64,000 nt of DNA from Cetorhinus maximus (taxonomy: Eukaryota), in NCBI RefSeq assembly GCF_964194155.1, contig NC_135901.1:26970001-27034000 (forward strand). The letters are read 5' to 3'. The position numbers and the translations under genes were made by a program. The notes under the pieces are model-generated. The model was given only the letters and a program-made list of their open reading frames with translations, was not told the origin of the DNA and did no database searches. This document shows, piece by piece, positions 4,672 through 64,000 of the stretch. Each line of letters begins with the position of its first letter. The first letter of the stretch is position 1.

Positions 4672-5430
4672 TCACTTGTGAACTCGCTGATGTCTCTGCA
4701 TGTGGGATAATTGAGTGAATCCCTTCCCACACACTGAGCAGCTGAACGGCCTCTCACCAGAGTGAACTCGCTGGTGGATCTGCAGGTTGGCTGACTGAGT
4801 GAATCCCCTCCCACACACAGAGCAGGTGAAGGGCTTCTCTCCATTGTGAATTCGCTGGTGTGTCAGCAGGGTGGATGAATGACTGAAACCCTTCCCACAC
4901 ACAGTACAGGTGAACGGCCTCTCCCTGGTGTGAACTCGCTGGTGTATCAGCAGGGCGGATGACCTTCTAAACCTCTCCGCACAGTGAGAACAGCTGAATG
5001 GTCTGTCCTCAGTGTGAATGCGCTGGTGGATCATCAGGTCCTGAGAGCTTTTGAAGCCGCTCCCACAGTCAGAGCATTTAAAAGGTCTCTCACTCGTGTG
5101 GGTGACATGGTGCTGCAGCAGGTTGGATAACTGAGTGAATCCCTTCCCACACTCAGGGCAGGTGAATGGCCTCTCACCAGAGTGAACTCGCTGGTGGATC
5201 TGCAGGTTGGATGACTGAGTGAATCCCTTCCCACACACAGAGCAGGTGAACGGCCTCTCCCCGGTGTGAACTCGCTGGTGTCTCAACAGGGAGGATGACC
5301 TTCTAAACCACTTTGCACAGCGAGAGCAGTTGAATGGCCTCTCCCCGGTGTGAATGCGTTGATGAGCTTCCAGCTCAGATGGGAATTTGAATCCTTTCCC
5401 ACAGTCCCCACATCTCCATGGTTTCTCCAT
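4672..5430 (-). CDS. C2H2 zinc-finger protein, 9 fingers, no effector domain (G1)
   Basis: 252-aa ORF of tandem CX2CX12HX3H repeats with HTGERPF-type linkers. The family 3' UTR follows at ~4520-4671. Confidence 0.9.
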
Positions 5431-5722: not shown

Positions 5723-6570
5723 AAGGATGTCAAATCTCTTTAAGAGAGAGAGACCTGGGCCAACCTTTCCAGAGTCTGCACCCTCCCTGGATTCACTTCC
5801 TTTCCCTTCAGTTCCTGCAAGTCAACAATTTGCCCCCAGAATGAGAAAAGAAACGGAAAGGGGGAAACATTGATTTCCTCACAGATGTTGCCCAGAGGAG
5901 GAAGTTTCAGTCTGAAGCTCATTGTCCAACTTCCGCATTGTGACGTCCACAATGGAACCCTGCCTGAATCAGCCAATAGGAATCATTCTGCTCCGCGGTG
6001 ACGTCCTCGGGTTCCAGTCTGCAGGCCAGGCGCGCGGACACGGGAGCCCCGCCCCTACCCATTGATACCCCTCCCCTTACCCCTCCCCTTCCCCCTCCTC
6101 GAGCCAAGGTTTCCAGGCAACCGGTTGACGGCTCCGGCCAGAGCGAGAAGCTGCTCGGAGAACTCCGGAGAGGGGAAGCTGCGCATGTGCGGGGGAGAGC
6201 CCGCTCCTTCCCTTCATGCTGAGGGAGTGACCAATGGGAAGAGTTGGAGGACCGGAAGGACTCTGGTCCTCCAGCCAATCAGAGCGCGGACTTTGTGCGA
6301 ATGAAGCTTGAGCTTCACACAGACAAAAACTTCCTCCTGTGTCCAACATCTGTGAGTAAAACACTTTCTTTTCTCCCCCTTTCCATTTCTTTTCTCATTC
6401 TGGGGGGAAATTGTTGACTTGCAGGAACTGAAGGGAAAGGAAGTGAATCCAGGGAGGGTGCAGACTCTGGAAAGGTTGGCCCAGGTCTCCCTCTCTCTCT
6501 CTCTCTCTTAAAGACATTGACATCCTTTGCTCCCTCAGCTTGACACATTTATTTGTCTGGCTAAAAGGAT
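5723..6570. promoter_or_regulatory. Bidirectional promoter cassette 1 with inverted arms; core orientation opposite to cassettes 2-4
   Basis: CpG-rich core with CCAAT x3, tgacgtc x2, gcgcatgtgcg, ccggaag/cttccg and a GC box. Flanked by inverted copies of the agagagacctgggccaacctttccagagtctgcacc... arm. Lies between divergent G1 and G2. Confidence 0.85.
6425..6474 (+). other. Predicted 50-nt leader exon inside the promoter arm, present in every arm
   Basis: Upstream donor catct|GTGAGT (6352), pyrimidine tract and ttgcAG acceptor, purine-rich exon, then donor aag|GTTGGC. Its phase matches the downstream acceptor ttcacAG|GATATT at 7624. Splicing is inferred. Confidence 0.6.
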
Positions 6571-7525: not shown

Positions 7526-7969
7526 AATGAGAGAAGAAAGAATCTTCCATAGAAACTACAATTCTCTTTTCTGAATTTCTATCCTGCACTGACAGCGATG
7601 ACTTCTGTAAACATCTTTCACAGGATATTAGAAGGGGAGGATTTATGGACAGAAATCTCACATCAAATGTCACATCAAGATCTGAGAGAGTCATTCCATT
7701 CATGGGAACCGAATGTCATCGGGAGAAATCTTTGTTTGCTCTGTCTGCTTCAGAAGATTTTAAACATCAGTGTGACTGGAAAAGCACCGAGACACACACA
7801 CCCGAGTGAGAGTGTTCCAATGCACTGACTGTGGAAAGAGTTTGCACCAGTTACACAGCCTGAAAACAACATCACCATTCACAGTGGGGAGAGACCATAC
7901 AGGTGTTCTGTGTGTACACGAGGCTTCAACTGACCATTAAAGCTGGAGAGACACAAGGATACGCGCACC

Positions 7970-8812
7970 ATGGAGAAACCGTGGAAATGTGGGGACTGTA
8001 GGAAGGGATTCCCTTCCCCGTCTGCGCTGGAAACTCATCGACGCATTCACACCGGGGAGAGGCCATTCACCTGCTCCATGTGTGGGAAGGGATTCAATGA
8101 TTCATCCCACCTGCAGACACACCTGCGAGTTCACACCAAGGAGAGGCCATTCACCTGCTCTGAGTGTGCGAATGCATTCAGTGATTCATCCGCCCTGCGG
8201 AGGCACCGGAGAGTTCACTCTGGGGAGAGGCCATTTATCTGTTCTGAGTGTGGGAAGGGATTCACTCAGTTATCCAACCTGCAGAAGCACCAGCGAGTTC
8301 ACACCGGGGAGAGGCTGTTCACCTGCTCTGAGTGTGGGAAGGGATTCACTCAGTTATCCCACCTGCTGCGACACCATGTCACTCACACGAATGAGAGACC
8401 GTTTAAATGCTCTGACTGTGGAAGTGGCTTCAAAAGCTCTCCGGAACTGATGGGCCACCAGCGCATTCACACTGAGGAGAGACCTTTCCGCTGCTCTGAG
8501 TGTGGGAAGGGTTTTAGATGGTCAACAACCCTGCTGATACACCAGCGAGTTCACACCGGGGAGAGGCCGTTCACCTGCTCTGTGTGTGGGAAGGGATTCA
8601 GGCATTCATCCACCCTGCTGATACACCAGCGAGTCCACACCGGGGAGCGGCTGTTCACCTGTACCGTGTGTGGGAAGGGATTCAGCCATTCGTCCACCCT
8701 GAGAAAGCACTGGCATGTTCACACCAGGGAGAGGCCATTCACCTGTTCCGTGTGTGGGAAGGGATTCACTCAGTTATCCAGCCTGCGGAGACACCAGCGA
8801 GTTCACAAGTGA
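7970..8812 (+). CDS. C2H2 zinc-finger protein, 10 fingers (G2)
   Basis: 280-aa tandem finger ORF with accATGg Kozak context. The family 3' UTR follows at 8813-8980. Confidence 0.9.
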
Positions 8813-11950: not shown

Positions 11951-12049
11951 CACTGTGGACAATTGTCATGACCACAGCCAGTGTTAATTGCTGCACAAAC
12001 CAAATCCCAGAGGGAAACTTGGCATTGGACTTTTCTGTTCTTTTTTTAA

Positions 12050-12900: not shown

Positions 12901-13099
12901 CAATAGCTCTTTTAAATCACTCCGACACTTTTCTGGAAGGTAATCCAATATTCCAGCTAAATTCTTAAGCACGCCATCATTGTCCAGTTTAATCAAAGGA
13001 AGATCAATTTTAGAATCCTTAATTCCTACATCTGTTTCTTTACTTATAACTACCAATACCTCCTCCTGTCTATTCTCTCTGTCAAAGTATTTTTTGAGC

Positions 13100-15247: not shown

Positions 15248-15805
15248 CTACTGTTTGTGTGAAATTTCATACGTATCGGCTAAAACAGCAGCTTCTCTGA
15301 TGTTTTTACTTTGTCTTTCAGCTAAATATGTCTTGGTGTTTACTGCAATGCTATTTCTAAATTCTTCCATAAACATAACCTCTCTTACATTTTCAAATGT
15401 CTTGTCTAATTTTAATGCTCTGAACCATTGATCCCAGATCATTTCTTTTTCTCTTGCAAACTCCACAAATGTCTGATGAGGTCTCTTCCTGAAAGTCCTA
15501 AACTTTAACTGGTCAGCTTCAGGGACAAGCTCATAAGCATTGAATACGGCCTTCTTTACTATCTCGTAATCTGCAGACTGTTCCTCTGATAAGCTTGCAT
15601 ACACATTCATTGCTGTGCCTGACAAAACACTCTGTAACATGATAGTCCAAGCATCACTTGGCCAACTCAATTTCATAGCAATCTTTTCCAATGAGGTGAA
15701 ATGTCTTTCAATTCCATCCTCTGTAAATTTAAGCACTAACCGAAGATTTTTAGTTAAATCAAATTCCTCATCGGACATCGGAATCACTATCTCTCCTTTC
15801 TTCAT
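15248..15805 (-). pseudogene. Gmr1-type gag capsid region (SCAN-related C-terminal domain)
   Basis: FEK-like/W...LSG.A..VYASL and DYEIVKKAVFNAYELVPE...KFR motifs typical of Gmr1-like Gag. Degenerate zinc knuckle near 15050-15090. Confidence 0.75.
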
Positions 15806-16502
15806 TTATTCTAAGCGTCACTTTAGACAATTCATACTGTCTGGCTCCTTTCTCTCTCTGTAGCTCTCTATCTCTTTCCCTACCTCTTTCCTCAATTGGT
15901 AACTTCTCTCTCTGAAGTTGAAGTTCAATCTTTCACATTTCTATCTCCCGTAATCTTTTCCTTTTCCTGCTCATCTCTTTCCCATTGAAGCTTTTTTAAA
16001 AATTCTATTTATTTTCATCTGTCTTTTTATTTTTCAAGTTTTGTCATTTCTCTTTCTTTCTAACTCGAATTGTTTTCATTTCTTTTTCTTTTCCTCTTTC
16101 TTCCAATTCAAGCTTTTGCCTTTCTCTATCTCTTTCTATATCAAGCTGCTTCTTTGGCAACTGAAGTCTTACTGCCTCTAGCTGTGACACACTAGTTTCA
16201 GGTGTCCCTTCCTCCAACTTTAAATGCAGGGTAAGTACTTTAACTGCATCAGCCTTACGAAATTCCGCTTTTATCTCTACCTGCACTTCATCTGCTAACT
16301 CTCTCAACTGAGTTTTAGTCAGAGATTTCAAATACTCCATAGTCACATTTTCCACTCCTAGAAAAGTTGTAGCAATTGCCAAAGTCATTTCGCAGTCCAG
16401 CCACTTAAAAAACCCTCAACACAAAACTCCTGAGTTCAGCCTTTTTCTCACACTCGTATCCCTTAGATTCACAAACTCCAACCCAATCAAGGAATTTTAA
16501 TA

Positions 16503-19035: not shown

Positions 19036-20046
19036 TCATTTGTGCACTTGCTGGTGTCTCAGCAAGTGGGGCAAATGAGTGAATCCCTTCCCACACTCAG
19101 AGCAGCTGAACGGCCTCTCCCTGGTGTGAGTTTGCTGATGTGACTGCAGGTGTGATGAAGTTTTGAATCTCTTCCCACACTTCGGGCAGGCGAAAGGCCT
19201 CTCCCCAGTGTGAGCTCGCTGATGTTTCAGAAGGCTGGATGAATCTTTGAATCTCTTCCCACACTCAGAGCAGGTGAATGGCCTCTCCCCACTGTGAACC
19301 CGCTGGTGTTGCAGAAGATTTGATGAGTGTTTTAATCGCTTTCCACACACGGAGCAGATGAATGGCCTCTCCCCAGTGTGAACTCGCTGGTGTGATATTA
19401 GGTGGGATAACCGACTGAATTTTTTCTCACACTCAGAGCAGGTGAACGGCCTCTCCCCAGTGTGAACTCGCTGGTGTATCCGCAGATTGGGTAACCCAGT
19501 GAATCCCTTCCCACACGCAGGGCAGGTGAACGGCCTCTCCCCAGTGTGAACTCGCTGGTGTGTCCGCAGGTTGGGTAACCAAATGAATCCCTTCCCACAC
19601 TCAGGGCAGGTGAATGGCCTCTCCCCAGTATGAACTCGCTGGTGTGTCCGCAGGTTGGGTAACCCAGTGAATCCCTTCCCACACTCAGGGCAGGTGAACG
19701 GCCTCTCCCCGGTGTGAACTCGCTGGTGTATCAACAGGTTGGAAGACCGAGTGAATCTCTTCCCACACTCAGAGCAAATGAATGGCATCTCCCTGGTGTG
19801 AACTCGTTGGTGTGTCCGCAGGTTGGATAACCAAATGAAACTCTTCCCACACTCAGCACAGGAGAATGGCCTCTCCCCGGTGTGAACTCGTTGGTGTATC
19901 TGCAGGCTGGATGACTGAGTGAATCCCTTCCCACAGTCAGGGCAGGTGAAAGGCCTCTCCCCGGTGTGACTGCGCCGATGAGTTTCCAGCTCAGATGGGA
20001 ACCGGAATCCTTTCCCACAGTCCCCACATTTCCACGGTTTCTCCAT
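19036..20046 (-). CDS. C2H2 zinc-finger protein, 12 fingers (G3)
   Basis: 336-aa tandem finger ORF. Recent internal finger duplications ([14 protein letters not shown] alternate). The family 3' UTR is at ~18885-19035. Confidence 0.9.
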
Positions 20047-21439
20047 GATCTAGGTTTGATGATCAGTTGAAGCCTTGTCCAGACACACACACAACACGTG
20101 TACAGTCTCTCCCCGCTGTGAATGGTGTGATGTGTTTTTCAGGCTGTGTAACTGGTTACAGTTCTTTCCACAGTCAGTGCACTGGAAACACTCTCACTCG
20201 GGTGTGTGTGTCTCGGTGCTTTTCCAGTCCCCCTGATGTTTAAAGCCTTTCAAAGCAGACAAACTTTTCTCTTTCTAGATACAAAAGTCAATGATATTTA
20301 GGTCCTGATGAATCGAGTGACTCTGTCAGACTCTGGCCTGACATTTGGTTTGAGATTTCTGTCTGCAAATTCTCCGCTTCCAATTTCCTGTAAAAGGAGT
20401 TTACAAAAGTCATCACTGTCAGTACAGGATAGAAATTCAGAACAGACAATTCTAGCTTCTACGGAACATTCTTTCCTCTCCTTTGGGCTGCCCAATGAAT
20501 GGAAAGACGTCTGTATCGCTGGACTTAAAATGGTTGTAATTTACAGGACTGTTTCACTGGGTTAAGATGCAGGCAATGCAAGGAAGAACCTTAGTTAGGT
20601 AGCGAATGGTCATGACCTGGAACTCGCTCCCTACGAGGGTGGTGGAAGGGGAGAATTTCAAAATGAAATTGGATGGGCACTTGAAGGAAATAAACTTGCA
20701 GGGAAATGGGGATATCGAGGGGGAATGGGACTGACTGGATCGTTCTACAGAGTCGGCATGGACTCAAATTGCCAAATGGACTCCTTCAGTGCCATAATGA
20801 CCGTATGACTGGAAATATATAACCTAGCTACAGCACTATATTACAAGACTAAAAATAATAATAAATGTGCTTTATTGCGAACCATAAATATCTCTAATAT
20901 GTACCATACAATAACACTAGACATATCTCTGTTGTGACGAACTCCATGGAGATTGATCACCTTAAATCCCCAGACAACCCCAACAGAATAAACCAAACGA
21001 CAAGGTTTCACTTGTTTAAAACTTTTACTGTAACAATCAAACTAAAATCAACATAAAAGAAGCATAAAATAAGAGACAAATAGTATTTGAATGGATAGGA
21101 TAAATTTGACTTTAAATCGCTCGTACAATAAAAACAGGCTCCACAAAGTCACAAGCATTTCCCCCCTCAGCATATATGGCACTAATTCCAGTTACAGAGT
21201 CCCACACCTCTCTGTATTTTCCAGGGGAAACAGATGTTGGACACAGGAGGGAATTTTAGTCCATGTGAAACTAAAAATAAAAGGTGTGCTGTTTAAAATC
21301 AAACTGCATTGACTAGGAAGAAAATGAAGGGAAGACATTTTGCAAAGTCCCCTCCCCTCCCCCACTCCCACAGCTGGCAGCCCAGCACACAGGCACAGAA
21401 AGCGCTGCTGAGCCGAGCTGTCCAGAGCAGGAGCAATGA

Positions 21440-22030
21440 CATTTGGATTTCGGACTGTTGTCTGCAATTCATCCTCTTCTAATATCCTATGAATGGATTG
21501 ACAAAAGTGATCACTGTCGGCAGACAATTCTATGGAATATATGGAATGTTCATTCCTCTCTCATTCCCCAAGAGCTGTAAATCTCCGTTCACACACTCTC
21601 ACTCCATTCTCACTCTGCTGTACCTAATAGACATCCTCCCAATTCTCCTGAAGGTACCCATTCATGCTGATCAACAGATCTACACTCATCGCTTCTTATC
21701 AACAAACTTGAGAATCTTAATATAAATATATTTACTGACGTTGGTGGAAGCAAAAATGATCAATCATTTCAAATTGAAACTGGATGGGCACTTGAAGAAA
21801 ATAAACTTGCAGTGTTGGAGTATATAGAGGGGGAATGTGAATGACTGGATTGCTGAACAGAGAGTCAGCATGGACTCGAGATGCCGAATGGATGTGCCAA
21901 AATGTCTGGCTATGACTGGAAATATATAACGTAGCTACAGTTACAGGACTAGAAGTAACAATAAATTTACATTATTACAGAACATTAAATAAATAAATAA
22001 TATATTTAATAGGTGCCATAAAACAAAACT
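21440..22030 (-). repeat. Second, more decayed copy of the ZNF intron and acceptor region
   Basis: Repeats 20340-20930 (ttctaatatcct...aaaagt.atcactgtc...gactggaaatatataac.tagctacag). The two copies are separated by an unidentified insertion at ~20934-21430. Confidence 0.55.
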
Positions 22031-24090
22031 AGACATATCTTTATCCTATATTAATTTACTGCCCCCTTAAATGTCAGCCATCCCATGGGGAAACCACCCC
22101 TTTAATTGTGAACATTAGGAAAGAGACCATCCTTTTAGCCAGACAAATAAATGTGTCAAGCTGAGGGAGCAAAGGATGTCAGTGTTGGGACCACAACTTT
22201 TCACTTTATACATTAATGATCTAGATGAAGGAACTGAGGGCATTCTGGCTAAGTTTGCAGATGATACAAAGATAGGTGGAGGTACAGGTAGTATTGAGGA
22301 GGCGGGGAGGCTGCAGAAGGATTTGGACAGGTTAGGAGAATGGGCTAAGAAGTGGCAGATGGAATACAACGTGGGGAAGTGTGAGGTCATGCACTCTGGT
22401 AGGAAGAATAGAGGCATAGACTATTTTCTAAATGGGGAGAGAATTCAGAAATCTGGAGTGCAAAGGGACTTGGGAGTCCTAGGACAGGATTCTCTTCAGG
22501 TTAACTTGCAGGTTGAGTCGGTAGTTAGGAAGGCAAATGCAATGTTGGCATTTATTTCGAGAGGACTAGAATATAAAAGCAGGGATGTGCTGCTGAGGCT
22601 TTATAAGGCTCTGGTCAGACCACATTTAGAATATTGTGAGCAATTTTGGGCCTCGTATTTCAGGAAGGATGTTCTGGCCCTGGAGAAGGTCCAGAAGAGG
22701 TTTACGAGAACCATCCCAGGAATGAAAGGCTTAACATATGAGGAACGTTTGAGGACTCTGGGTCTATACTCGTTGGAGTTTAGAAGGATGAGGGGGGATC
22801 TGATTGAAACTTACAGAATATTGAGAGGCCTGGATCGAGTGGACGTGGGGAAGATGTTTCCATTAGTAGGAGAGACTAGGGCTCGAGGGCACAGCCTCAG
22901 AGTAAAGGGAAGACCTTTTAGAACAGAGATGAGGAGAAACTTCTTTAGCCAGAGAGTGGTGAATCTATGGAATTCATTGCCACAGAAGGCTGTGGAGGCC
23001 AGGTCATTGAGTGTATTTAAGACTGAGACAGAAAGGTTCTTGATTGGTCAGGGGATCAAAGGTTACGGGGAGAAGGCGGGAGAATGGGGTTGAGAAACTT
23101 ATCAGCCATGATTGAATGGCGGACCAGACTCGATGGGCCGAATGGCCTAATTCTGTACCTATGTCTTATGGTCTTATTATGGTCTTATGTCAATGTCTTT
23201 AAGAGAGAGAGAGAGAGAGACCTGGGCCAACCTTTCCAGAGTCTGCACCCTCCCTGGATTCACTTCCTTTCCCTTCAGTTCCTGCAAGTCAACAATTTCC
23301 CCCCAGAATGAGAAAAGAAATGGAAAGGGGGAGAAAAGAAAGTGTTTTACTCACAGTTGTTGGACACAGGAGGAAGTTTTAATCTGTGTGAAGCTCAATC
23401 ATCATTCACACAAAGCCCGCGCTCTGATTGGCTGGAGGACCGGTGTCCTTCCGGTCCTCCAACTCTTCCTATTGGTCAATCCCTCAGTATGACGGGTGGG
23501 GGCGGGCTCTCCCCGGCACATGCGCAGCTTCCTCTCTCCCGAGTTCTCCGAGCGGCTTCTCGCTCGGGCCGGAGCCGTCAACCGATCAACCTTGGCTCGA
23601 GAAGGTGGAGGGGGAGGGGGAACAATGGGTGGGGGCGGGGCTCCCGTGTCCGCGCGCCTGGCCTGCAAAATGGAGCCCCAGGACGTCACCGCGCAGCAGA
23701 GTGATTCCTATTGGCTGGTTCGGGAAGGGTTCCATTGTGGACGTCACAATGCGGAAGTTGGACAATGAGCTTCAGACTAAAACTTCCTCCTCTGGGCAAC
23801 GTCTGTGAGGAAATCAATGTTTCCCCTTTTCCATTTCTTTTCTCATTCTGGGGGCAAATTGTTGACTTGCAGGAACTGAAGGGAAAGGAAGTGAATCCAG
23901 GGAGGGTGCAGACTCTGGAAAGGTTGGCCCAGGTCTCTCTCTCTCCTAAAGACATTGATATCCTTTGCTCCCTCAGCTTTGTTTATTAGATTTATTTATT
24001 TGTCTGGCTAAAAGGATGGTCTCTTTCTTAATGTTCGCAATTAAAGGGGTGGTTTCCCCAGGAGATGGCTGACATTTAAGGAGACAATTT
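22030..24090. promoter_or_regulatory. Bidirectional promoter cassette 2; left arm interrupted by a CR1
   Basis: Same arms and core (core ~23410-23770) as the other cassettes. Lies between divergent G3 and G4. Confidence 0.85.
22182..23186 (+). mobile_element. Young 5'-truncated CR1 LINE with 6-bp TSD
   Basis: Uninterrupted 305-aa RT C-terminal ORF (FADD) and cttatggt-type tail repeats. atgtca at 22176-22181 and 23187-23192 reconstitutes the intact arm seen at 36161. Confidence 0.92.
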
Positions 24091-25437
24091 CAGGGTGTTT
24101 AACTGTCCTGTATTTTAAGAGATTGCTCCTTATTTTGCCTTTTGTCCTGTATTTCTAGGACAGCTTGTGGGAAACTGATCCCGGGAATCTCCAGGGTGAG
24201 TTTGAGTGATTCAAGTGGGACTGCAAGTGAGTGATTCGGCCAGCAGAGAGATGATGATGATGTGACTAAACAAGATAAGTTGTAAGTTTTAGTTTATTTT
24301 AAACCCCACCCCTCCCACTATTATTGTCTCTAGACACCTCCTCCCCATCCCCTCTCATATTGAAACCCAAACCCCCATCCAACCTGCTCTCACGGTCACC
24401 AGCATCCCACCACCACCCACTCCCCCATCCATGTCTCCAACCCCACAGCTGAAGTGTCCGTTATTTTATTTTGTAAGACTTCTGCCCCCTCGGCAATATA
24501 GTAATAGAGGACAAAGGTATGTCTAATGTTGTCATGGGTGACACTTTAGATATATTATTTATAGTTCTGTAATTAAATTCATTTATTATTCTTTCTAGTC
24601 TTGGAAGCGAGTACTGCAGATACTTAATATATTTCCAGTGATAGTCATTATGATAACTTGACTCCAGACTGACTCTCTGTAGAGTGACTCAGGCAGTCCC
24701 ATTCCCCCTTCTATATCCCCGTTCATTTCCTTCAAGTGTCAATTCAATTTCATTTTGAAATTATTGATCGTTTCTGGAACCACCACCCTCATAGGCTGTG
24801 GCTTCCAGGACATCACCACTGGCTGTTGAAATAAAGTTCTTCCCCACAGCATCATGTGTCTCTCTAATCATGTAATAGAGTCCTGTGTATTACACATATT
24901 TTTAGTGCAGTACTATTGGGTGTATATGAGGTACAGCAGGGTGAGAATGGAGTGAGAGTGTGTGGGATGGAGATTTACAGCTTTTGTAGAGCGAGAGAGG
25001 AAAGAATGTTCCATAGAAATGAGAATTGTCTGTTCTGAATTTCTAACCTGTACTGACAGTGATGAATTTTGTAAACTCCTTTAACAGGATATTCGAAGGG
25101 GAGGCCAGAAATCTCAAACTAAACTTCACATCAAGATCTGACAGAGTCACCCCATTCATCGGGAGCTGAATATGATCGGCTTTTGAATCTGGAAGGAGAA
25201 ATGTTTGTCTGTTCTGTCTGCTTGCAAAGGTTTCCAACATCAGTGTGACTGGAAAAGCACCAAGTCACACTCGAATGACAGTGTTCCAGTGCACTGACTC
25301 TGGAAAGAGCTTTAACCAGTTACACAGCCTGAAAAAACATCACCATTCACAGTGGGGAGAGGCCATACATGTGTTGTCTGTGTGGACGAGGCTTCAACTG
25401 ATCGTCAAACCTGGAGAGACACAAGGACACTCACACC

Positions 25438-26448
25438 ATGGAGAAACCGTGGAAATGTGGGGACTGTGGGAAGGGATTCAAAGCCCCGTCTGAGCTGGAA
25501 ACTCATCGGCGCAGTCACACTGGGGAGAGGCCATTCACCTGCTCTGAGTGTGGGAAGGGATTCACTCAGGTATCCCACCAGCAGAGACACCAGCAAGTTC
25601 ACAGCGGGAGGAGACCGTTCACCTGCTCTGAGTGTGGAAAGGGTTTCGCTGATTTATCCGCCCTGCAGATGCATCGGCGAGTTCACACCGGGGAGAGACC
25701 CTTCACCTGTTCTGAGTGTGGGAAGGGATTCATTCAGTTATCCCACCTGCAGATACACCAGCGAGTTCACACCGGGGAGAGACCCTTCACCTGTTCTGAG
25801 TGTGGGAAGGGATTTAGTGATTCATCCACATTGCTGACTCACCAGCGAGTTCACAGCGGGGAGAGGCCATTCACTTGCTCTGAATGTGGGAAGGGATTCA
25901 CTCGGTCATCCTACCTGCTGACACACCAGCGAGTTCACACCGGGGACTGGCTCATCTGCTCTGAGTGTGGGAAGAGATTCACTCGGTCATGTGACCTGCT
26001 GGCACACCAGCGGCTACACACTGGGGAGAGGCCATTCACCTGTTCCGTGTGTGGGAAGGGATTCATTCTGTCATCCACCCTGCAGACACACCAGCGAGTT
26101 CACACTGGGGAGAGGCCATTCACCTGTTCCGTGTGTGGGAAGGGATTCACTCGATCATCCCACCTGCTGAGGCACCAGACAGTTCACACCGGGGAGAGGC
26201 CATTCACCTGCTTTGAGTGTGGGAAGGGATTCACTCGGTCATCCCATCTGCTGACACACCAGCGAATTCACACCGGGGAGAAGCCATTCACCTGCTCCAA
26301 GTGTGGGAAGGGATTCAGTGATTCATCCTCCCTGCTGAGACACCAGCGGGTTCACACCGGGGAGAGGCCGTTCACAGGCTCTGAGTGTGGGCAGGGATTC
26401 ACTTGTTCATCCGAGCTGCTGACACACCATGATAGTCACACTGATTAG
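25438..26448 (+). CDS. C2H2 zinc-finger protein, 12 finger units with the last degenerate (G4)
   Basis: 336-aa ORF with accATGg start. The next finger (RTFRCSDCG) is cut by an LTR. Confidence 0.88.
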
Positions 26449-34287: not shown

Positions 34288-35064
34288 TCAGGTGAACGGA
34301 CTCCCTCCAGTGTGAATTCGCTGGTGTCGCAGCAGGTTGGTTAACCGAGTGAATCCCTTCCCACACATGGAGCAAATGAATGGCCTCTCCCTGGAGTGAA
34401 TTCGCTGGTGTGTCAGCAAGTGGGATGACTGAGTGAATCCCTTCCCACACTCCGAGCAGGTGAATGGCCTCTCCCTGGTGTGAACTCGCTGGTGTGTCAA
34501 CAGGTAGAATGATCGAGTGAATCCCTTCCCACACTCAGAGCAGGTGAACAGGGTCTCCCCAGTGTGAACCCGCTGATGTGTCAGCAAGTGGGATGAAAGA
34601 GTAAATCCCTTCCCACACTCAGAGCAGGTGAACGGCCTCTCCCCGGTGTGAATGCGCTGGTGTGCCAGCAAGCTGGATGACTGAGTGAATCCCTTCCCAC
34701 ACTCAGAGCAGATGAATGGCCTCTCCCCAGTGTGAACTCGCTGGTGTGTCAACAGGTGGGATGAAAGACTGAATCCCTTACCACACATGGAACAAATGAA
34801 AGGCCTCTCCCTAGTGTGAACTCGCTGGTGTGTCTGCAGGTGGCATGACTGAGTAAATCCCTTCCCACACTCAGAGCAAGTGAATGGCTTCTCCCCAGTA
34901 TGAACTCGCTGGTGTTTCAGCAGGGTGGATGACTGAGTGAATCCCTTCCCACAATCGCAGCAGGTGAATGGCCTCTCCCCGGTGTGACTGCGTCGATGAA
35001 TCTCCAGCTCCGATGGGGCTTTGAATCCCTTCCCACAGTCACCACATTTCCATGGTTTCTCCAT
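34288..35064 (-). CDS. C2H2 zinc-finger protein, 9 fingers, prematurely stopped (G5)
   Basis: ORF from MEKPWKC ends at a TGA replacing a finger Cys. Further finger sequence continues to ~34115. Confidence 0.85.
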
Positions 35065-36014
35065 GATGCTCAGTTGAAGCCTCAGCCACACACAGAACAC
35101 ATGTGCGTTCTCACTCTGCTTTGAACAGTGCAATGTATTTTCACAATGTGTAACTGGTTAAAGCACTTTCCACAGTCAGTGCACTGGAACACTCTCACTT
35201 GGGTGTGTGTGTCTCGGTGCTTTTCCAGTCACACTGATGTTTAAAATCTTTAGAAGCAGACAGAGCAGACCAACATTTCTTCTAGCTTCAAAGGCAGATA
35301 TTCAGATCCTGATGATTCAAGTGACTGTCAGATCTTGATCTTACCTTTGGTTTGAGATATTTGTCTACAAATCCTTCCCTTCTAATATCCTGTAAAAGAA
35401 GTTTACAAAAATCATCACTGTCAATACAGGATAGAAATTGAGACAATTCTCATTTCTATGGAACATTCTTTCCTCTCTCATTCCCCAAAAGGTGCAAGTC
35501 TCCGTCCCATACACTCTCCCTCCACTCTCACTCTGCTCTACCCAATATACACTCTCCCAATTCCACTGAAAGTGCGGATTTAAGCTGATCAATAGATCCA
35601 TGCTCACCACTTCCTGTCCAGTTCACAGAGATGTCAAAATCATATACACATATAGTACTGGACTAAAATGTCTGGACATTTTGGACCTTTTTTGAATACA
35701 CAAATGGTTGGCAGTCAACAGCTCATGGTTGCATTCACCATGCCAATGTTTCAACCAATCAAGGCTTGCTTGCCAACCAAACAGCACCCATTACTCATGC
35801 AGCATAAATTGTTATTCCCTTTGAAATTTGGTATTCTTTTGTCTGTCCTGATGAGGTAAAGATGAAAAGCTTCTGCAGCTTGTCTCTTTCTACAGCAAAA
35901 CTTAAGTTCTGTACAAGCAAACAGCTATTAATATTCGAAGACTAGAAATAATAATAAATGTTCTTTATTACAGAACCATAAATAATTTATCTAATATGTA
36001 CCATATAACAACAC

Positions 36015-36950
36015 GAGACATATCTCTGTTCGATATTAATTTACTGTTCCCTTAAATGTCAGCCAACTCCTGGGGAAACCACCCCTTTAATTGTGAACAT
36101 TAGGAAAGAGACCATCCTTTTAGCCAGACAAATAAATGTGTCAAGCTGAGGGAGCAAAGGATGTCAATGTCTTTAAGAGAGAGAGAGAGAGACCTGGGCC
36201 AACCTTTCCAGAGTCTGCACCCTCCCTGGATTCACTTCCTTTCCCTTCAGTTCCTGCAAGTCAACAATTTCCCCCCAGAATGAGAAAAGAAATGGAAAGG
36301 GGGAGAAAAGAAAGTGTTTTACTCACAGATGTTGGACACAGGAGGAAGTTTTAGTCTGTGTGAAGCTCAATCTTCATTCACACAAAGCCCGCGCTCTGAT
36401 TGGCTGGAGGACCAGAGTCCTTCCGGTCCTCCAACTCTTCCTATTGGTCAGCTTCTCAGCATGAAGGGAAGGGGCGGGCTCCCGTGTCCGCGAGCCTGGC
36501 CTGCAGACTGGAACTCGAGGACGTCACCGCGGAGCAGGGTGATTCCTATTGGCTGATTCAGGCAGGGTTCCATTGTGGACGTCACAATGCGGAAGTTGGA
36601 CAATGAGTTTCAGACTAAAACTTCCTCCTCTGGGCAACATCTGTGAGGAAATCAATGTTTCCCCCTTTCCATTTCTTTTCTCATTCTGGGGGCAAATTGT
36701 TGACTTGCAGGAACTGAAGGGAAAGGAAGTGAATCCAGGGAGGGTGCAGACTCTGGAAAGGTTGGCCCAGGTCTCTCTCTCTCTCATAAAGACATTGACA
36801 TCCTTTGCTCCCTCAGCTTGACACATTTATTTGTCTGGCTAAAAGGATGGTCTCTTTCCCAATGTTCACAATTAAAGGGGTGATTTCCCCAGGAGATGGC
36901 TGACATTTAAGGGGGAAGTAAATGAATATAAGACAGGGATATGTCTAGTG
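36015..36950. promoter_or_regulatory. Bidirectional promoter cassette 3 with an internal core deletion
   Basis: Inverted arms at ~36046-36304 and ~36660-36916. The core keeps CCAAT, CRE and ETS motifs but lacks the NRF1-like segment. Confidence 0.85.
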
Positions 36951-37843
36951 GTTATGTGATGCCTTGTCCATATACTATTTAAGGCTTTATAAACTTCATT
37001 TATTCTTGGTTGTTGGCTTATAATATAGTGTCATACCGACAGTTATATGTTTCCAGTCAGAGTCATTATCACAGAGAAAGAGTATATTCAGCAACTCGAG
37101 TCCATGCTGAATCACATCCCAGTTTATTTCCTTCAAGGGCCCCATCCAGTTTCATTTTGGAATCATTCATTGTCTCTGCTTCCACCACCCTCATAGGCAG
37201 CGAGTTCCAGGCCATAAGCACTTGCTGCAGAATTAAAGTTTCACCTCATCCTCTCTCTTTTGCTAATCAGTAAGTATACATATATATTTCTGTACATAGA
37301 TATTTAGATTAGCTGTGTCCAGGACAGGAAAAAGTGACCATGGATCTGTCAATCAGCATGAATCGGCACCTTCAGGAGAATTGGGAGGGTGTGTATTAGG
37401 TACAGCAGAATGAGAATGGAGGGCAAGTGTATGGGATGGAGATTTATATTTGACAGTGATGATTTTTGTAAATTCCTTCCACAGGATATTAGAAGCGGAA
37501 GATTTGCAGACAGAAATCTCAAATCAAGCTACACTTCAAGATCTGACAGAGTCATTTGATTAATTGGGTCTTGAATATCATTGGCCCTTTGAACCGAGCA
37601 GGAGAAATGTTTGTCTGTTCTGTCTGCTTCAAAAGGTTTTAAGCCTCAGTGTGACTGGAAAAGTACCGAGAGAGACGCACCCAAGTGAGTGTTCCAGTGC
37701 ACTGACTGTGGAAAGAGCTTTAACCAGACAGGCTGAAAAATCATTGCCCCATTCACAGTGGGGATGGACCGCATGTGTGTTTTGTGTGTGGATGAAGCTG
37801 CCTTTGATCATCGAATCTGGAGAGGCATAAGTACACCCACACC

Positions 37844-38340
<497 letters not shown>

Positions 38341-47298: not shown

Positions 47299-48477
47299 TC
47301 ACTTATGAACTCGCTGGTGTCTCAGCAGGTCGGATAACTGAGTGAATCCTTTCCCACACTCAGAGCAGGTGAACGGCCTCTCCCCGGTGTGAACGCGTTG
47401 ATGTCTCTGCAGGCTGGATTTCTCAGTGAAGCCCTTCCCACACTCAGAGCAGGTGAATGGCCTTTCCCCGGAGTGAACTCGCTGGTGTCTCAGCATGTTG
47501 GATAGCTGAGTAAATCCCTTCCCACACTGAGAGCAGGTGAACGGCCTCTCCCCGGTGTGAACTCGCTCGTGTTCCTGTAGCGTGAATAACTGAGTGAATC
47601 CCTTCCCACACTCTGAGCAGGTGAACGGCCTCTCGCCAGTGTGAACTCGCTGGTGTATCAGCAGGGTGGATGATGCAGTGAATCCCTTCCCACACTCAGA
47701 GCAGGTGAATGGCCTCTCCCCAGTGTGAACCTGCTGGTGCACCTGCAATTTAGATAACCGAGTGAATCCCTTCCCACACTCAGAACAACTGAACGGCCTC
47801 TCCCTATTGTGAATTTGCTGGTGTGTCCGCAGGTGGGATACCTGAGTGAATCCTTTCCCACACTCAGGGCAGGTGAATGGCCTCTCCCCAGTGTGAACTC
47901 GCTGGTGTATCTGCAGGTGGCCTAACTGAGTAAATCCCTTCCCACACTCAGAGCAGGTGAACAGCCTCTCCCCAGTGTGAATTCGCTGGTGTATCAGCAG
48001 GTGGGATAACTGAATAAATTGCTTTCCACATTGGGGGCAGGTGAATGGCCTCTCCCCGGTGTGAACCCGTTCATGTGACTGCAGTCTGCACAACCGACTG
48101 AATCCCTTCCCACACTCTGAGCAGGAGAACGGCCTCTCCCCAGTGTGAACACGCTGGTGTGTCAGCAGGGCAGATGAATTCCTGAATCCCTTCCCACACT
48201 GTGAGCAGGTGAACGGTCTCTCTCCGGTGTGAAATTGCTGGTGCCTGTACAGGTTGGATGAATCAGTGAATCCCTTCCCACACTGAGAACAGGTGAATGG
48301 CCTCTCCCCAGTGTGAACTCGCTGGTGTACCTGCAGGTGGTATAACCGAGCGAATCCCTTCCCACACTCAGAGCAGGTGAATGGCCTCTCCCCGGTGTGA
48401 CTGCGTCGATGAGTTTCCAGCTCTGATGGGGATTTGAATCCCTTCCCACAGTCCCCACATTTCCACGGTTTCTCCAT
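47299..48477 (-). CDS. C2H2 zinc-finger protein, 14 fingers (G7)
   Basis: 392 aa from the accATGg start, all fingers intact. The family 3' UTR is at ~47150-47298. Confidence 0.92.
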
Positions 48478-49084
48478 GGTGCGCGTGTCCTTGTGTCTCT
48501 CCAGGTTCAACAATCAGTTGAAGCCTCGATCACACAGAGAACACGTGTACAGTCTCTCTCCGCCGTGAATGGTGATGTATTTTCAGGCTGTGTCACTGGT
48601 TTCTGCTCTTTCCACAGCCAGTGCACTAGAAACACTCGCACTCAGGTGTGTGTCTCAGGACTTTTCCAGTCACGCTGATGTTTAAAATCTTTTGAAGGAG
48701 ACAGAACAGACAAACATTTCTCCTTCTAGACTCAAAGGCTGATCATATTCTGGTCTAGATAAATCCAGTGACTCTTTGAGAATTTGACCTTTGGTTTGAG
48801 ATTTCTGTCTGTAAATCCTCCCCTTTTAATATCCTGTAAAAGGAATTCACAACAGTTGTCACTGTCAGTACAGGACAGAAATTCAGAACAGACAATTCTC
48901 GTTTCTATGGAACATTCTTTACTCCCTCGTTCCCCCAAAAGCTGTAAATCTCTGTCCCACACAGTCTCCCTCTGTTCTCACTCTGCTGTACCTAATATAC
49001 ACTCTCCCAATTCTCCTGAAGGTGCTGATTCATGCTGATCAACAGATCCACATTCACCGCTTCCTGTCTAGGACAAAGAGATCA

Positions 49085-51110: not shown

Positions 51111-51574
51111 AATCATCACCCAGGCTGCTAGTCTTAAATATCTGTCAGTGCCTATAATAATGGGCTAAGTGTAACATACAGCAGAGGATGATTTCAACAG
51201 GAATATGAGTGGGATATGAGGAAGAACTTTATTTCAGCAGCAGGTGGTCATGTCCTGGAACTCGCTACCTCTGAGGATGGTGGAAATGGAGACAATCAAT
51301 AATTTCAAAATGAAATTGGTTGATCATTTGATGGAAATAAACTGGCGGGGGAATGGGAGTATAGAGGGGGAATGGGACAGACAGGATTGCTCCAGGGAGT
51401 CGGCATGGACACAAGTTACCGAATGGGCTTCCTCTGTGCTGTAATGACTCTGTGACTCGAAATACATAACGTAGCTACGTATATATATATATAAAACAAG
51501 ACTAGAAATAATAATAAATAAACTTCATTAAAGAACCATAAATAAGATATCTAATATGTACCATATAACAACAC

Positions 51575-52650
51575 CAGACATATCTCTGTCCTATATTAAT
51601 TTACTGTCCCCTTAAATGTCAGCCATCTCCTGGGGAAACCACCCCTTTAATTGTGAACATTAGGAAAGAGACCATCCTTTTAGCCAGACAAATAAATGTG
51701 TCAGGCTGAGGGAGCAAAGGATGTCAATGTCTTTAAGAGAGAGAGAGAGAGAGAGACCTGGGCCAACCTTTCCAAAGTCTGCACCCTCCCTGGATTCACT
51801 TCCTTTCCCTTCAGTTCCTGCAAGTCAACAATTTCCCCCCAGAATGAGAAAAGAAATGGAAAGGGGGAGAAAAGAAAGTGTTTTACTCACAGATGTTGGA
51901 CACAGGAGGAAGTTTTAGTCTGTGTGAAGCTCAATCGTCATTCACACAAAGCCCGCGCTCTGATTGGCTGGAGGACCAGAGTCCTTCCGGTTCTCCAACT
52001 CTTTCTATTGGTCAGCTTCTCAGCATGCAGGGAAGGGGCGGGCTCTCCCCCGCACATGCGCAGCTTCCCCTCTCCCGGGTTCTCCGAGCGGCTTCTCGCT
52101 CTGGCCGGAGCCGTCAGCCGGTTGCCTGGAAACCTTGGCTCGAGGAGGTGGAGGGGGAACAATGGGTGGGGGCGGGGCTCCCGTGTCCGCGCGCCTGGCC
52201 TGCAGACTGGAACCCGAGGACGTCACCGCGGAGCAGTGTGATTCCTATTGGCTGATTCATGCACGGATTCCATTGTTGACGTCACAATGCGGAAGTTGGA
52301 CAATGAGCTTCAGACTAAAACTTCCTCCTCTGGGCAACATCTGTGAGGAAATTAATGTTTCCCCCTTTCCATTTCTTTTCTCATTCTGGGGGGAAATTGT
52401 TGACTTGCAGGAACTGAAGGGAAAGGAAGTGAATCCAGGGAGGGTGCAGACTCTGGAAAGGTTGGCCCAGGTCTCTCTCTCTCTCTCTCTTAAAGACATT
52501 GACATCCTTTGCTCCCTCAGCTTGACAGATTTATTTGTCTGACTAAAAGGATGATCCCTTTCCTAATGTTCACAATAAAAGGGGTGGTTTCCCCAGGAGA
52601 TGACTGACATTTAAGGGGACAATAAATTAATGTAGAACAGAGATTTGTTT
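51575..52650. promoter_or_regulatory. Bidirectional promoter cassette 4, the most complete copy
   Basis: Inverted arms at 51606-51868 and 52360-52620 with about 8 substitutions by eye. Core has ATTGG x3, cgcacatgcgca, ggggcggggc, gacgtcac x2 and cggaagt. Confidence 0.9.
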
Positions 52651-53565
52651 AGTGTATATTAGTAATGGTTCTTTAGTAACAGAGATAGAGTCATTACAGC
52701 ACAGAAGGAGCCCATATGGTAACTCGAGTCCATGTTGACTCTCTGCAGAGCAATCCAGTCAGTCCCATTCCCCCTTTGTATCCCCATTCTCCTGCAATTC
52801 TATCTTGTTCAAGTGCCCATTCAATTTCATTTTAAAATCATGAATTGATTCCACTTCTATCACCCCTGTATTCAGCAAGCTCCAGATCATGAACAATCAC
52901 TGCCTAAAAAAAATTTATCTTCAGATTTTCCCTGTCTCTCTGATCAGGAAATATACTTATATGAAGATTTTCACATCTTGGATAGGAAGTAATGAGTTGC
53001 ATCTGCGAATCAGCATGAATCAGCCCCTTCAGGAGAATTGGGAGGGTGTATATTAGGGACAGCAGAGTGAGAATGGAGGCAGACTGCGTGGGATGGGGAT
53101 TTGCAACTTTTGGGGAATGAGAGAGAAAAGAATGTTCCACAGAAACTAGAATTGCCTGTTCTGAATTTCTATCCTGTACTGATGACTTTTGTAAATTCCT
53201 TTTACAGGATGTTAGAAGGGGAGGATTTACAGACAGAAATCTCAAACCAAACATCACATCAAGATCTGACAGAGTCACTCAATTCCTCAAGACCTGAATA
53301 TCATCAGCCTTTGACTCTGGGAGAAATGTTTTTCTGTTCTTTCTGCTTCATAAAATTTCAAACATCAGTGTGACTGAAAAACACCGAGACACACACACCC
53401 GAGTGAGAGTGTTCCAGTGCACTGACTGTGAAAAGAGCTTTAACCAGTTATATAGACTGAGAAAACATCACCATTCACAGCGGGGAGAAACCGTACACGT
53501 GTTCTCTGCGTGAACGAAGCTTCAACTAATCATCGACCCTGGAGAGACACAAGGACACCCGCACC

Positions 53566-53820
53566 ATGGAGAAACCATGGAAATGTGGGGACTGTGGGAA
53601 GGGATTCAAATCCCCATCTGCACTGGACACCCATCGACGCATTCACACCGGGGAGAGGCCATTCATCTGCTCTGTGTGTGGGAAGGGATTCACTAAGTCA
53701 TCGAACCTGCTGACACACAAGCGAGTTCACACCGGGGAGAGGCCGTTCATCTGCTCCGTGTGTGGGAAGAGATTCACTGAGTCATCCAGCCTGCGGAGAC
53801 ACCAGAAACTTTTCAACTAA
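53566..53820 (+). CDS. Short C2H2 zinc-finger ORF, 2 intact fingers and 1 incomplete (G8); possibly a pseudogene
   Basis: 84-aa ORF with accATGg start, followed directly by the family 3' UTR. Confidence 0.7.
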
Positions 53821-61603: not shown

Positions 61604-62446
61604 TCACTTGTGAACTTTCTGGTGTCTCCGCAGGCTGGAGGACTGAGTGAATCCCTTCCCACACTCGGAGCAGATGAACGGTCTCTCCCCGGTGTGAACT
61701 TGGTGGTGTATCAGCAGGTGGGATGACTGAGTGAATCCTTTCCCACACTCTGAACAGGTGAACGGCCTCTCTCCATTGTGAACTCGCTGGTGTATTTGTA
61801 GGGTGAATGACACACGGAATCCCTTCCCGCACACCGTGCAGATGAACGGCCTCTCTCCAGTGTGAACTCGTTGGTGTGCCAGCAGGTGAGATAACTGAGT
61901 GAATCCCTTCCCACACACAGAGCAGGTGAGCAACCGCTCCGTGGTGTGAAATCGCTGGTGTTTCAGCAAGCTGGATGAATCACAGAATCCCTTCCCACAC
62001 ACAGAGCAGGTGAATGGCCTCTCCCCAGTGTGAACCCGCTGGTGTGCCCGCAGGCTGCATAACCGACTGAGTCCCTTCCCACACTCAGAGCAGGTGAACG
62101 GCCTCTCCCCGGTGTGAAGTCGCTTGTGTCTCAGCAGGTGGGCTGACTGAGTGAATCCCTTACCACACGCAGAGCAGGTGAATGGCCTCTCCCCAGAATG
62201 AACCCGCTGGTGTGTCTGCAAATCCCATGAGTGAGTGAATCCCTTCCCACATTCAGAGCAGGTGAATGGCCTCTCCCCAGTGTGAACTTGCTGGTGTCTC
62301 AGCAGGTGGGATGACAGAGCGAATCCCTTCCCACACTCAGAGCAGGTAAATGGCTTCTCTCCAGTGTGTGTGTATCGATGAATCTTCAGCTCAGATGGAA
62401 AGCGGAATCCCTTCCCACAGTCCCCACATTTCCACCGTTTCTCCAT
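61604..62446 (-). CDS. C2H2 zinc-finger protein, 10 fingers (G9)
   Basis: 280-aa tandem finger ORF with accATGg start. Confidence 0.9.
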
Positions 62447-63334
62447 GGTGTGGGTGTCCTTGTGTCTCTCCAGGTTCGACGATCAGTCACACTAATGCTT
62501 AAAATCTTCTGCAGCAGATAGAACTCACAAACCTTTCTCCCATGTTTAAAGCTGATGATATTCAGGTCCGAAGAATTGAGTGATTTTGTCAGATCATGAG
62601 ACGATGTTTGGTTTGAGATTTCTGTCTGTAAATCCTCCTCTTCTAATATCCTGTAAAAGGAATTTACAAAAGTCATCACTGTCAACACAGGATAGAAACT
62701 CAGAACAGACAATTCTAGTTTCTATGGAACATTCTTTCCTCTCTTGTTCCCCAAAATCTGTAAATCTCCGTCCCACACATTGTCCCTCCATTCTCACTCT
62801 GATGTACCTAATATATGCCCTTCTAATTCTCCTGAAGGTACCATTTCATGCTGGTTGACAGGTCTATGCTCACCACTTCCTGTCCAGGAAACCTGAAAAT
62901 CTTCATGCTGACAGCCACATTAATGTTTATATATAGTTATAAATTACCGGTCTAAATATGTGTGTAATCTACAGTCCGGTATTACTTGATTCAAAATACA
63001 AGGAGGATGTGAGAAAGAACTTTATTTAGGCAGTGTCATGAATTCGATTCGCTGCACATGAAGATGGTGCAAGCAAAAATTATCAGTGCTTTCAAAATGA
63101 AATGGGATGGGAACTTGAAGGAAATAAACTTGCAGGAGAAGGGGGTATATGGGGGGAATGGGACCGACTGGATTGTTCTACAGAGAGTCGGCATGGACTC
63201 GAGTTGCCGAATGGGCTCCTTCTGTGCTGTAATGACTCTGTGACTGGAAATAAATAGCACGCTACAGTATTGTATTGTAATATAAAATATACTTTATTAC
63301 AGAACCATAAATAATATATCTAATATGATATAAC

Positions 63335-64000
63335 AACACTAGACATATCTCTGTCCTATATTAATTTACTGTCCCCTTAAATGTCAGCCATCTCCTGGGG
63401 AAACCACCCATTTAATTGTGAACATTAGGAAAGAGACCATCCTTTTAGCCAGACAAATAAATATGTCAAGCTGAGGGTGCAAAGGATGTCAATGTCTTTA
63501 AGAGAGAGAGAGAGACCTGGGCCAACCTTTCCAGAGTCTGCACCCTCCCTGGATTCACTTCCTTTCCCTTCAGTTCCTGCAAGTCAACAATTTACCCCCA
63601 GAATGAGAAAAGAAATGGAAAGGGGGAGAAAAGAAAGTGTTTTACTCACAGATGTTGGACACAGGAGGAAGTTTTAGTCTGTGTGAAGCTCAATCTTCAT
63701 TCAAAGAGAGAGGAGGAGCAGCAGCAGCTTTGCTGGGCAGTGATGAGCAGGTGAACAAGCTCATTGTCCAACTTCCGCATTCCGACAATGGGAGAAGCGC
63801 TGATTGGCTGGAGGACATAAGTCCTTCCGGTCGTCCAGCCTTTCCCGTTGGTCAATCCACCGCACTAAGACAATGAGGAAGCGGAACCAGAGCCCACGTG
63901 GGAGAGACTTTGACCAGCAGCCGCGCTGAGCTGTTGTCCAATCCGCAGTATTTTCTCTCTGTAACCAGTGCTATTGCTCCCAATGGGACACTGGGTGCTG
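63335..64000. promoter_or_regulatory. Cassette 5: standard arm joined to a different, related promoter core; runs off the window
   Basis: The arm matches the others up to aagctcaatcttcattca (~63703), then diverges. It keeps gattggctggaggac...gtccttccggtc.tccag and aagctcattgtccaacttccgcatt. Confidence 0.75.

Follow-up and report, generated by a model that had tools for sequence, protein, structure and literature searches.

A common promoter and intron start of a zinc-finger gene cluster in Cetorhinus maximus, probably kept near its ancestral sequence by short gene conversions

The closest described counterpart of the locus reported here is that of the chorion genes in the silkmoth Bombyx mori, where the HcA/HcB and A/B genes are arranged as head-to-head two-exon pairs (PMC4639761, available text). 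Both loci are tandem clusters of such pairs with a short promoter in common, both include some unpaired genes and pseudogenes, and for both gene conversion has been invoked; the Hc promoters are given in the same text as >90% identical among pairs. A second point of reference are the tandem C2H2 zinc-finger (ZNF) clusters of vertebrates, such as those of the KRAB-ZNF and the fish FiNZ-ZNF genes, which are large, lineage-specific and rich in broken copies, as is the cluster described below; in zebrafish, subsets of ZNF genes have promoter architectures in common (PMC10547256, available text). That text contains no instance of 'gene conversion', 'cartilaginous' or 'chondrichth'. Localised, long-lived conversion is known from gene pairs (PMC2720389, in part), and classical interlocus conversion leaves long-lasting, localised tracts of high identity between paralogues, introns included, as are found here (PMC3924818 and PMC2720389, both in part). 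Its rate is reported to be lower with lower identity and greater distance (PMC3924818, in part). Recombination is directed to promoters where PRDM9 is missing or partial, and loss of the SSXRD has been reported for some cartilaginous fish (PMC5519329, in part). Neither the cluster nor its promoter is described in the literature we searched (mostly open access, main texts without supplements), and the cluster is not described in the available portions of PMC10547256, PMC10620051 and PMC8455134.

The locus lies on NC_135901.1 of Cetorhinus maximus (C24 below), a chromosome of 65 Mb in a genome of 3.99 Gb. The window is the 64-kb stretch of C24 from position 26,970,001 to 27,034,000, and coordinates without further specification refer to it. 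We consider it probable that a cassette of promoter and intron start serves as the common front end of an estimated 500 ZNF genes and is kept near-ancestral by short conversions that favour the majority sequence. By analogy, the cluster would work like the chorion locus without being homologous to it, as a new variant of chorion-type concerted evolution. In the chorion locus the shared promoter measures 330 nt, there are 21 pairs, the A and B genes belong to different families and coding exons are the homogenised part (PMC4639761, available text). Here, in contrast, the distance from donor to donor is ~450 nt, copies number in the hundreds, both ZNF genes of a pair belong to one family and the homogenised part is non-coding (arm 96% identical, coding sequence ~60-85%).

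A preliminary description of the window had noted four cassettes, each with inverted arms around an asymmetric CpG core, and a half copy. Self-BLAST of the window, by which the inverted arms and cassette copies were located, confirmed this architecture, with the arms of cassette 4 at 51571-51933 and 52304-52655. The other copies lie at 5723-6570, where the orientation is reversed, and at 22028-24088, 35938-36950 and 63005-63703. The cassette is, however, larger than first described. An arm comprises the last part of a non-coding exon 1, its GT donor and ~270 nt at the start of intron 1, and the genes that bear it are two-exon C2H2 ZNF genes, two of which form the palindrome when placed head-to-head. 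Read outward, each arm runs from a short exon end through the GT donor into the intron start, and the intron closes with AG before the ZNF exon. The finger ORF begins within exon 2, so that exon 1 likely carries no coding sequence.

In cassette 4, the core (51891..52342, no strand assigned) is CpG-rich and asymmetric, is likely a bidirectional promoter and holds the 3' ends of both non-coding first exons, the left (L) one ending at 51891 on the minus strand and the right (R) one at 52342 on the plus strand. Its GC content is 0.59 and its 27 CpG correspond to an observed/expected ratio of 0.70, compared with 0 CpG in the arms and a ratio of 0.31 for the whole window. Word matches were found for CCAAT (51963, 52007, 52247) and GC boxes (52035, 52169), and NRF1-like (52052), ETS (51984, 52290) and CRE-like (52219, 52278) words are predicted; all are predicted sites, to which we presume the usual factor names to apply. 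The L arm (51600..51890, minus strand) starts with its GT donor at 51890-51889 and extends ~290 nt into intron 1 of the left ZNF gene; the R arm (52343..52630, plus strand) starts with the donor at 52343 and covers the intron 1 start of the right gene. Both have gradual outer edges. The left gene has its exon 2 at 47299..48833 (minus strand, acceptor AG before 48833) with an ORF at 48477-47299 that encodes 392 aa and 14 C2H2 fingers without other domain. Exon 2 of the right gene (53208..53820, plus strand, acceptor AG before 53208) contains an ORF at 53566-53820 that ends after 84 aa and 2 fingers, and this gene is likely a decaying copy.

Ahead of the ORF start, exon 2 carries ~350 nt of degenerate zinc-finger sequence, for example at 53208-53565, which likely belongs to the 5' UTR. 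Across 70 ZNF genes, identity is 95% in the first 30 nt of the ORF and 60-85% in later fingers. Between its start and the finger ORF, exon 2 has no open frame in 5 of 5 genes that carry an ATG there. R exon 1 contains, in the cassette 4 copy (52287-52342), an ATG whose frame would continue into exon 2 after splicing. L exon 1 contains a short upstream ORF (51923-51950), and a translational asymmetry between the L and R sides is possible.

Cassette 1 (5723..6570) lies in reverse orientation, with its R donor at 5882 (minus) and its L donor at 6352 (plus). The preliminary description had noted shorter arms here; both arms are indeed shortened, and the reason is deletions. Its R gene has a ZNF ORF at 4672..5430 (minus strand, 252 aa, 9 fingers), for which no acceptor homologue was found, and exon 2 of its L gene (7624..8812, plus strand) contains an ORF at 7970-8812 of 280 aa and 10 fingers. 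In cassette 2 (22028..24088, plus orientation; L donor 23354, minus; R donor 23805, plus), the L arm is interrupted at about 22186-23186 by a ~1-kb LINE piece with a 6-bp direct repeat at its flanks. Its L gene (exon 2 at 19036..20387, minus strand; ORF 20046-19036) encodes 336 aa with 12 fingers and its R gene (exon 2 at 25088..26448, plus strand; ORF 25438-26448) 336 aa with 11 fingers. Cassette 3 (35938..36950, plus orientation; L donor 36326, minus; R donor 36643, plus) has a core that is short by ~130 bp; its L gene (exon 2 at 34288..35389, minus strand) has an ORF of 258 aa at 35064-34288, and its R gene (exon 2 at 37485..38293, plus strand) a degenerate array without a Met-started finger ORF. 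At the putative half copy, which the preliminary description placed at 63335, the window edge does not truncate a cassette. What lies there is an L arm (63278..63703, minus strand, donor 63649) with an upstream promoter of a different type, followed by an exon 2 at 61604..62650 (minus strand) with an ORF at 62446-61604 of 280 aa and 10 fingers.

In protein searches a ZNF ORF matched vertebrate ZNFs at 37-61% identity. Unlike in KRAB-ZNF genes, the ORF lies wholly within exon 2, and the two window ORFs scanned consist of tandem C2H2 arrays only, with no match to KRAB or another effector domain. The window also contains a decayed LTR-type retrotransposon with an integrase core match (11463-16415, minus strand), as well as LINE pieces that include an open reverse transcriptase frame of 564 aa (31904-33598); a LINE ORF matched CR1-like reverse transcriptases.

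Arm identities of the order first reported (~95-97%) were reproduced. Over intron positions +28 to +270, left and right arms agree at 232 of 240 positions in cassette 4 (96.7%) and at 235 of 240 in cassette 3 (97.9%), and arms of different cassettes are 95.8-98.7% identical. The introns beyond are far more diverged, as had been claimed, the inverted introns being 60-73% alike past +300. L and R carry fixed differences in their innermost ~70 nt, where exon 1 ends and the donor lies, and are only 80-86% identical there.

We then surveyed contiguous samples totalling 1,264 kb (1.26 Mb) of the 4.4-Mb cluster and found 159 copies, 115 L and 44 R. The GT donor is intact in 150 of the 159, and a same-strand ZNF array follows within <9 kb downstream of 150 of the 159; conversely, 148 of the 163 ZNF arrays sampled have a copy upstream. 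An acceptor homologue was located in 137 of 150 genes, with AG in 131. Divergent pairs <1.5 kb apart comprise 94 of the 159 copies, most tight pairs having a donor-to-donor spacing of about 430-470 nt, and 65 of the 159 are not in tight pairs. The proposed association of the arm with ZNF genes holds in this survey. Among donor pairs up to 8 kb we counted 19 LR, 21 RL, 19 LL and 0 RR; this mixed orientation (19 LR, 21 RL), together with swapped partners and a majority sequence that is still ancestral, distinguishes the cluster from the chorion locus.

Across the genome, a 38-mer gave 254 exact matches versus 0 for its reversed control, which excludes chance; the 100 matches listed are all on C24. 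All 34 matches of an L probe fall at C24 26.93-31.24 Mb. An R probe gave 110 matches, and among the 100 listed 96 are on C24 (0.38-31.33 Mb) and 4 on small contigs. The dense domain spans about 26.93 to 31.35 Mb of C24, and the sampled density extrapolates to about 550 copies. ZNF arrays without arms occur at both borders of the cluster (C24 26.80-26.91 and 31.35-31.43 Mb), those at the left edge all on the plus strand. Some R-probe matches form inverted pairs ~34 kb apart (C24 10.98/11.01, 11.08/11.11, 12.94/12.97 and 15.73/15.76 Mb; also on contig C565), which suggests a repeated ~34-kb segment with ZNF pairs. A second type of left gene, in which L exon 1 is followed by an unrelated intron start, occurs at C24 0.38-26.3 Mb and in 6 copies within the cluster, its copies being 8-13% apart. 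In the common L arm, exon 1 of this second type seems to be fused to the R intron; if true, such a chimera is how the palindrome arose.

That the CpG core between divergent ZNF genes carries the motifs of a bidirectional promoter had been proposed earlier, and sequence variation agrees. In 34 tight LR cassettes, the predicted promoter words vary half as much as other core cells (69 of 2215, 3.1%, versus 581 of 9254, 6.3%), a level reached by 0 of 96 slid masks. CpG columns of the core are not hypermutable (6.2% versus 4.9%). Constrained words and non-hypermutable CpG are as expected of an unmethylated, working promoter, and in most tight pairs the divergent genes have 5' ends <1 kb apart; the core is likely a bidirectional promoter. 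One splice joint, which connects the final base of R exon 1 (52342) with 53222 in a contig of run X18 (guessed to be RNA), supports rightward transcription. No leftward joint was found among the 12 matches listed of 154; contigs of this kind cannot show start sites.

To compare arms with the genes behind them, we used 103 genes with full arms and measured exon 2 with its acceptor; gene 30077178, which had been matched to its neighbour's exon 2, was left out of later analyses (102 rows) and is still in some tables. Arms are 4.2% apart and exon 2 20.8%. Arm distance is flat over physical distance, from the same cassette to 4.4 Mb, and over exon-2 distance from 3% to >24%; over type it is near flat (LL 4.0, LR 4.6, RR 4.9%). 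In a set of 40 introns whose length is typical, the sequences are 95-98% identical at +40 to +240, most alike near +90 to +140 and about 70% identical past +320. Of the arm variants 65% are singletons, against 19% for a neutral (Kingman) coalescent. Deviation of arms from the majority is U-shaped along the cluster, with 1.2-2.0% at the ends and 2.6-3.2% in the middle (rho 0.42), and the gradient was repeated in three held-out samples (3.0, 2.6 and 1.8%). Branch lengths of close exon-2 pairs give no hint of a lower mutation rate at the left end of the cluster. For the chorion locus, Eickbush and Burke reportedly described conversion gradients.

Arms outside the cluster bear on the ancestral state. 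From the probe matches we picked 14 full arms beyond the domain, representing about six independent lineages. They lie 5.6-12.3% (6-12%) from the column majority of the cluster; for five arms close beyond the left edge of the domain the mean is 7.4%. The exon 2 deviation is 12.3% inside (n=102) and 12.6% outside (n=27), which indicates genes of like age. Cluster and outside majorities differ at only 2 of 236 columns, implying a stem of ~1.1%. Since outside arms have drifted and the majorities are near equal, cluster arms have stayed near ancestral while their private variants turn over. Contigs of three coded organisms carry the same majority letters in the 40 matches listed of 154. The consensus turnover and species-specific fixed differences of neutral concerted evolution were not found in these comparisons (stem ~1.1%).

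Direct signs of exchange were seen at the cassette. L-type runs of at least 2 letters occur at the exon/donor boundary in 7 of 48 R-core genes, some R-flanked on both sides; 2 of the 7 may share an origin. At the first six sites, none of 94 L-core genes has such a patch in the reverse sense; cases confined to a single site were 3 and 2, respectively. In 16 pairs of sister loci, some of which share a gene, the flanks are 5.9% (upstream) and 5.3% (downstream) apart, the arms 4.2%, equal to the family-wide distance, and the cores 8.5%; the core exceeds the flanks in 10 of 12 testable pairs (p=0.005), so that cores have become detached from the flanks around them. Sister arms share 0.3-0.6 variants. 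Sister cores still have 2-14 minor variants in common, so that either core replacement is partial or the core mutation rate is raised. Sister arms at family-wide distance and L patches in R genes together indicate gene conversion. The preliminary description had attributed the likeness of the arms to conversion or strong selection; conversion is involved, and selection alone fails (see below).

Partners are swapped at the same place. Among 27 pairs with a common downstream flank and at least 500 nt of upstream alignment (10 more pairs were too little aligned), the upstream flank is non-sister in 10, sister in 16 and borderline in 1. When units with one exon 2 <10% apart were compared (39 rows minus three with the mis-assigned gene 27097393, leaving 36), the other side is not close in 30 of 36; the 6 with both sides close all belong to one family of four units. 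On the exon-2 tree the L/R labels need 14 changes, at least 5 of them forced by well-supported branches, although they are still somewhat clustered (6 of 500 shuffles as low). Non-sister flanks, mismatched units and label changes thus show that promoter halves and exon 2s have been re-paired at the cassette. With 65 of 159 copies not in tight pairs and 30 of 36 unit comparisons mismatched, the earlier idea that the gene-promoter-gene unit expands as a stable whole is not supported.

Homogenisation of the 5' end of this ZNF family is real, family-wide and position-dependent. In the reading we favour, short gene conversions between any copies of the cluster would be frequent and would favour the majority sequence. 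Breaks may arise at or beside the open CpG promoter and sometimes be repaired from a paralogue; the pull to the majority could have its source in donor choice that depends on identity, in weak purifying selection or in both. A crossover within this stretch would connect one half of the promoter with a new exon 2, giving the genes new partners, and the palindrome would be a by-product of the intron start that the two paired genes have in common. Mano and Innan (2008) are said to have found that conversion strengthens selection in multigene families. Promoter-directed recombination would put breaks at CpG-island promoters, where exchange appears here (PMC5519329, in part). A search of the genome for the SSXRD of PRDM9 matched 0 of 46 candidates, and its control was silent as well, so that it gives no information on PRDM9. 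GC-biased conversion left no signal: arm deviations are AT-biased (equilibrium GC 0.32 versus 0.46 in the arm), and W-to-S variants do not reach higher counts.

Simulations used 550 copies in the final runs and 350 in earlier ones. With conversion biased by donor (c=90 mu, beta=1, tract 60, n=550), pi was 0.042, the singleton share 0.65, drift 0 and the distance between sisters 0.040. The data gave similar values of 0.042, 0.65, ~0.01 and 0.042; with two free parameters tuned after the data were seen, and tract length and copy number assumed, this fit speaks for sufficiency and is not proof. Weak selection with conversion fitted almost as well. Neutral conversion gave 21% diversity or, if fast, 9% singletons (0.09) with drift of 0.09-0.11, in contrast to the 0.65 and ~0.01 seen here. 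The flat arm similarity, without decay over physical distance inside the cluster, counts against simple conversion, which would predict such decay. The absent decay, the U-shaped gradient and the one-way L-into-R patches are not explained by our best reading. A bolder form of it, which we put forward tentatively and regard as possible rather than probable, is that the cluster proofreads itself by majority rule: repair would prefer the likest donors, which are near consensus, and the ancestral sequence would be frozen with little or no selection, in a socket into which zinc-finger arrays are swapped.

Among the alternatives, the one that fares best holds that near-absolute purifying selection acted on the arm until recently and that neutral drift followed since the last wave of duplication, conversion being incidental. 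Its simulation, likewise tuned afterwards, matches these summaries (pi 0.042, singletons 0.645, drift 0, sister distance 0.044), mid-cluster arms deviate by ~2.9%, about half the flank distance of sister loci, and no gene pair in the cluster is much younger than mid-cluster arms and sister flanks would imply. We nevertheless think it unlikely. It would require 240 intron bases to be frozen in hundreds of paralogues, yet not in same-aged copies elsewhere on the chromosome. The arms tolerate the LINE insertion and deletions (20 of 44 R arms and 15 of 115 L arms are shortened), and L genes with cut arms have kept their frame in 14 of 15 cases, compared with 58 of 87 full-arm L genes; among R genes breakage is more frequent, 7 of 21 with full arms having kept the frame. 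Arms of broken genes deviate by only 2.4% versus 2.1% (p=0.05). The arm shows no sign of RNA structure (folding z 0.63) and matches no Rfam family at the gathering threshold. Mosaics, over-diverged sister cores and the dependence on location are left unaccounted for.

Replacement of older promoters by one young cassette, which swept the cluster in a single burst of drive or recombination, would suit the star-like variant spectrum (65% singletons versus 19%), the staggered tract ends and the one-way L-into-R patches. However, a simulated sweep from a single copy moves the majority by ~9-10%, and about 1% is observed, so that a sweep is contradicted unless the donor copy was itself frozen; we regard it as very improbable.

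In Y-chromosome palindromes, a unique spacer separates inverted arms whose likeness is maintained by conversion. A corresponding arm-to-arm process, driven by hairpins or cruciforms, could be read from inverted arms 97-98% alike around a ~450-bp spacer, and the L patches on the R side could derive from the partner. Arms here, however, are ~0.3 kb long, and those of the same cassette are 4.3% apart (n=16) versus 4.2% overall, no closer than non-partners, so that homogenisation is family-wide and not arm-to-arm. Solo and palindromic L arms deviate equally (43 versus 26 arms, p=0.94), and both exon 2s of a unit are 21.5% apart versus 20.8% overall. Each unit had initially been seen as one palindrome with its own homogenised centre; these comparisons do not support that view, and arm-to-arm conversion as the main process is scarcely credible. 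Cruciform-driven repair was dropped as paired and solo arms do not differ.

Inverted arms in hundreds of copies could also point to a MITE or an element with long terminal inverted repeats, and assembly polishing can draw repeats toward a majority; both readings are hardly tenable. Among the matches listed, copies are confined to one chromosome region and small contigs, and in the sample 150 of 159 precede ZNF arrays, always at the ZNF 5' end. Tract ends are staggered from 190 to 612 (median ~295, 40 introns) without a common edge, no direct repeat of at least 8 nt spans the outer edges of cassettes 3 and 4, and the arms run on into homologous intron. Extent, staggered edges and this continuity rule out a MITE. 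Against an artefact, independent contigs derived from the reads of four runs give deep coverage of the arms and show identical letters, and each copy retains ~5 private differences. At 51704 and 52353, cassette 4 carries letters that occur in no contig of run X1, a run that otherwise matches perfectly over 305 nt next to the arm; these are possibly a polymorphism or a recent conversion.

The least credible alternative, constant strong purifying selection on the arm without exchange, agrees with the constrained promoter motifs, the intact GT in 150 of 159 copies and the majority letters shared by three coded organisms in the matches listed, but in simulation it predicts sister arms 0.9% apart with ~4 shared variants (observed, 4.2% and 0.3-0.6), and site-wise variation is uncorrelated between cluster and outside arms (rho 0.01).

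In this ZNF family the usual pattern is inverted, the intron start being five times more uniform than the protein-coding exon. With hundreds of copies, same-aged controls outside and a gradient along its length, the cluster offers a natural setting in which to ask two questions: whether donor choice during conversion could hold a sequence fixed in the absence of selection, and in what way very large ZNF repertoires maintain a common expression programme as the DNA-binding arrays diversify and change partners. Should breaks prove to lie at the cassette, the cluster would also bear on where recombination is targeted in this lineage. If majority-rule proofreading were true, recombination mechanics alone could yield extreme conservation of non-coding DNA.
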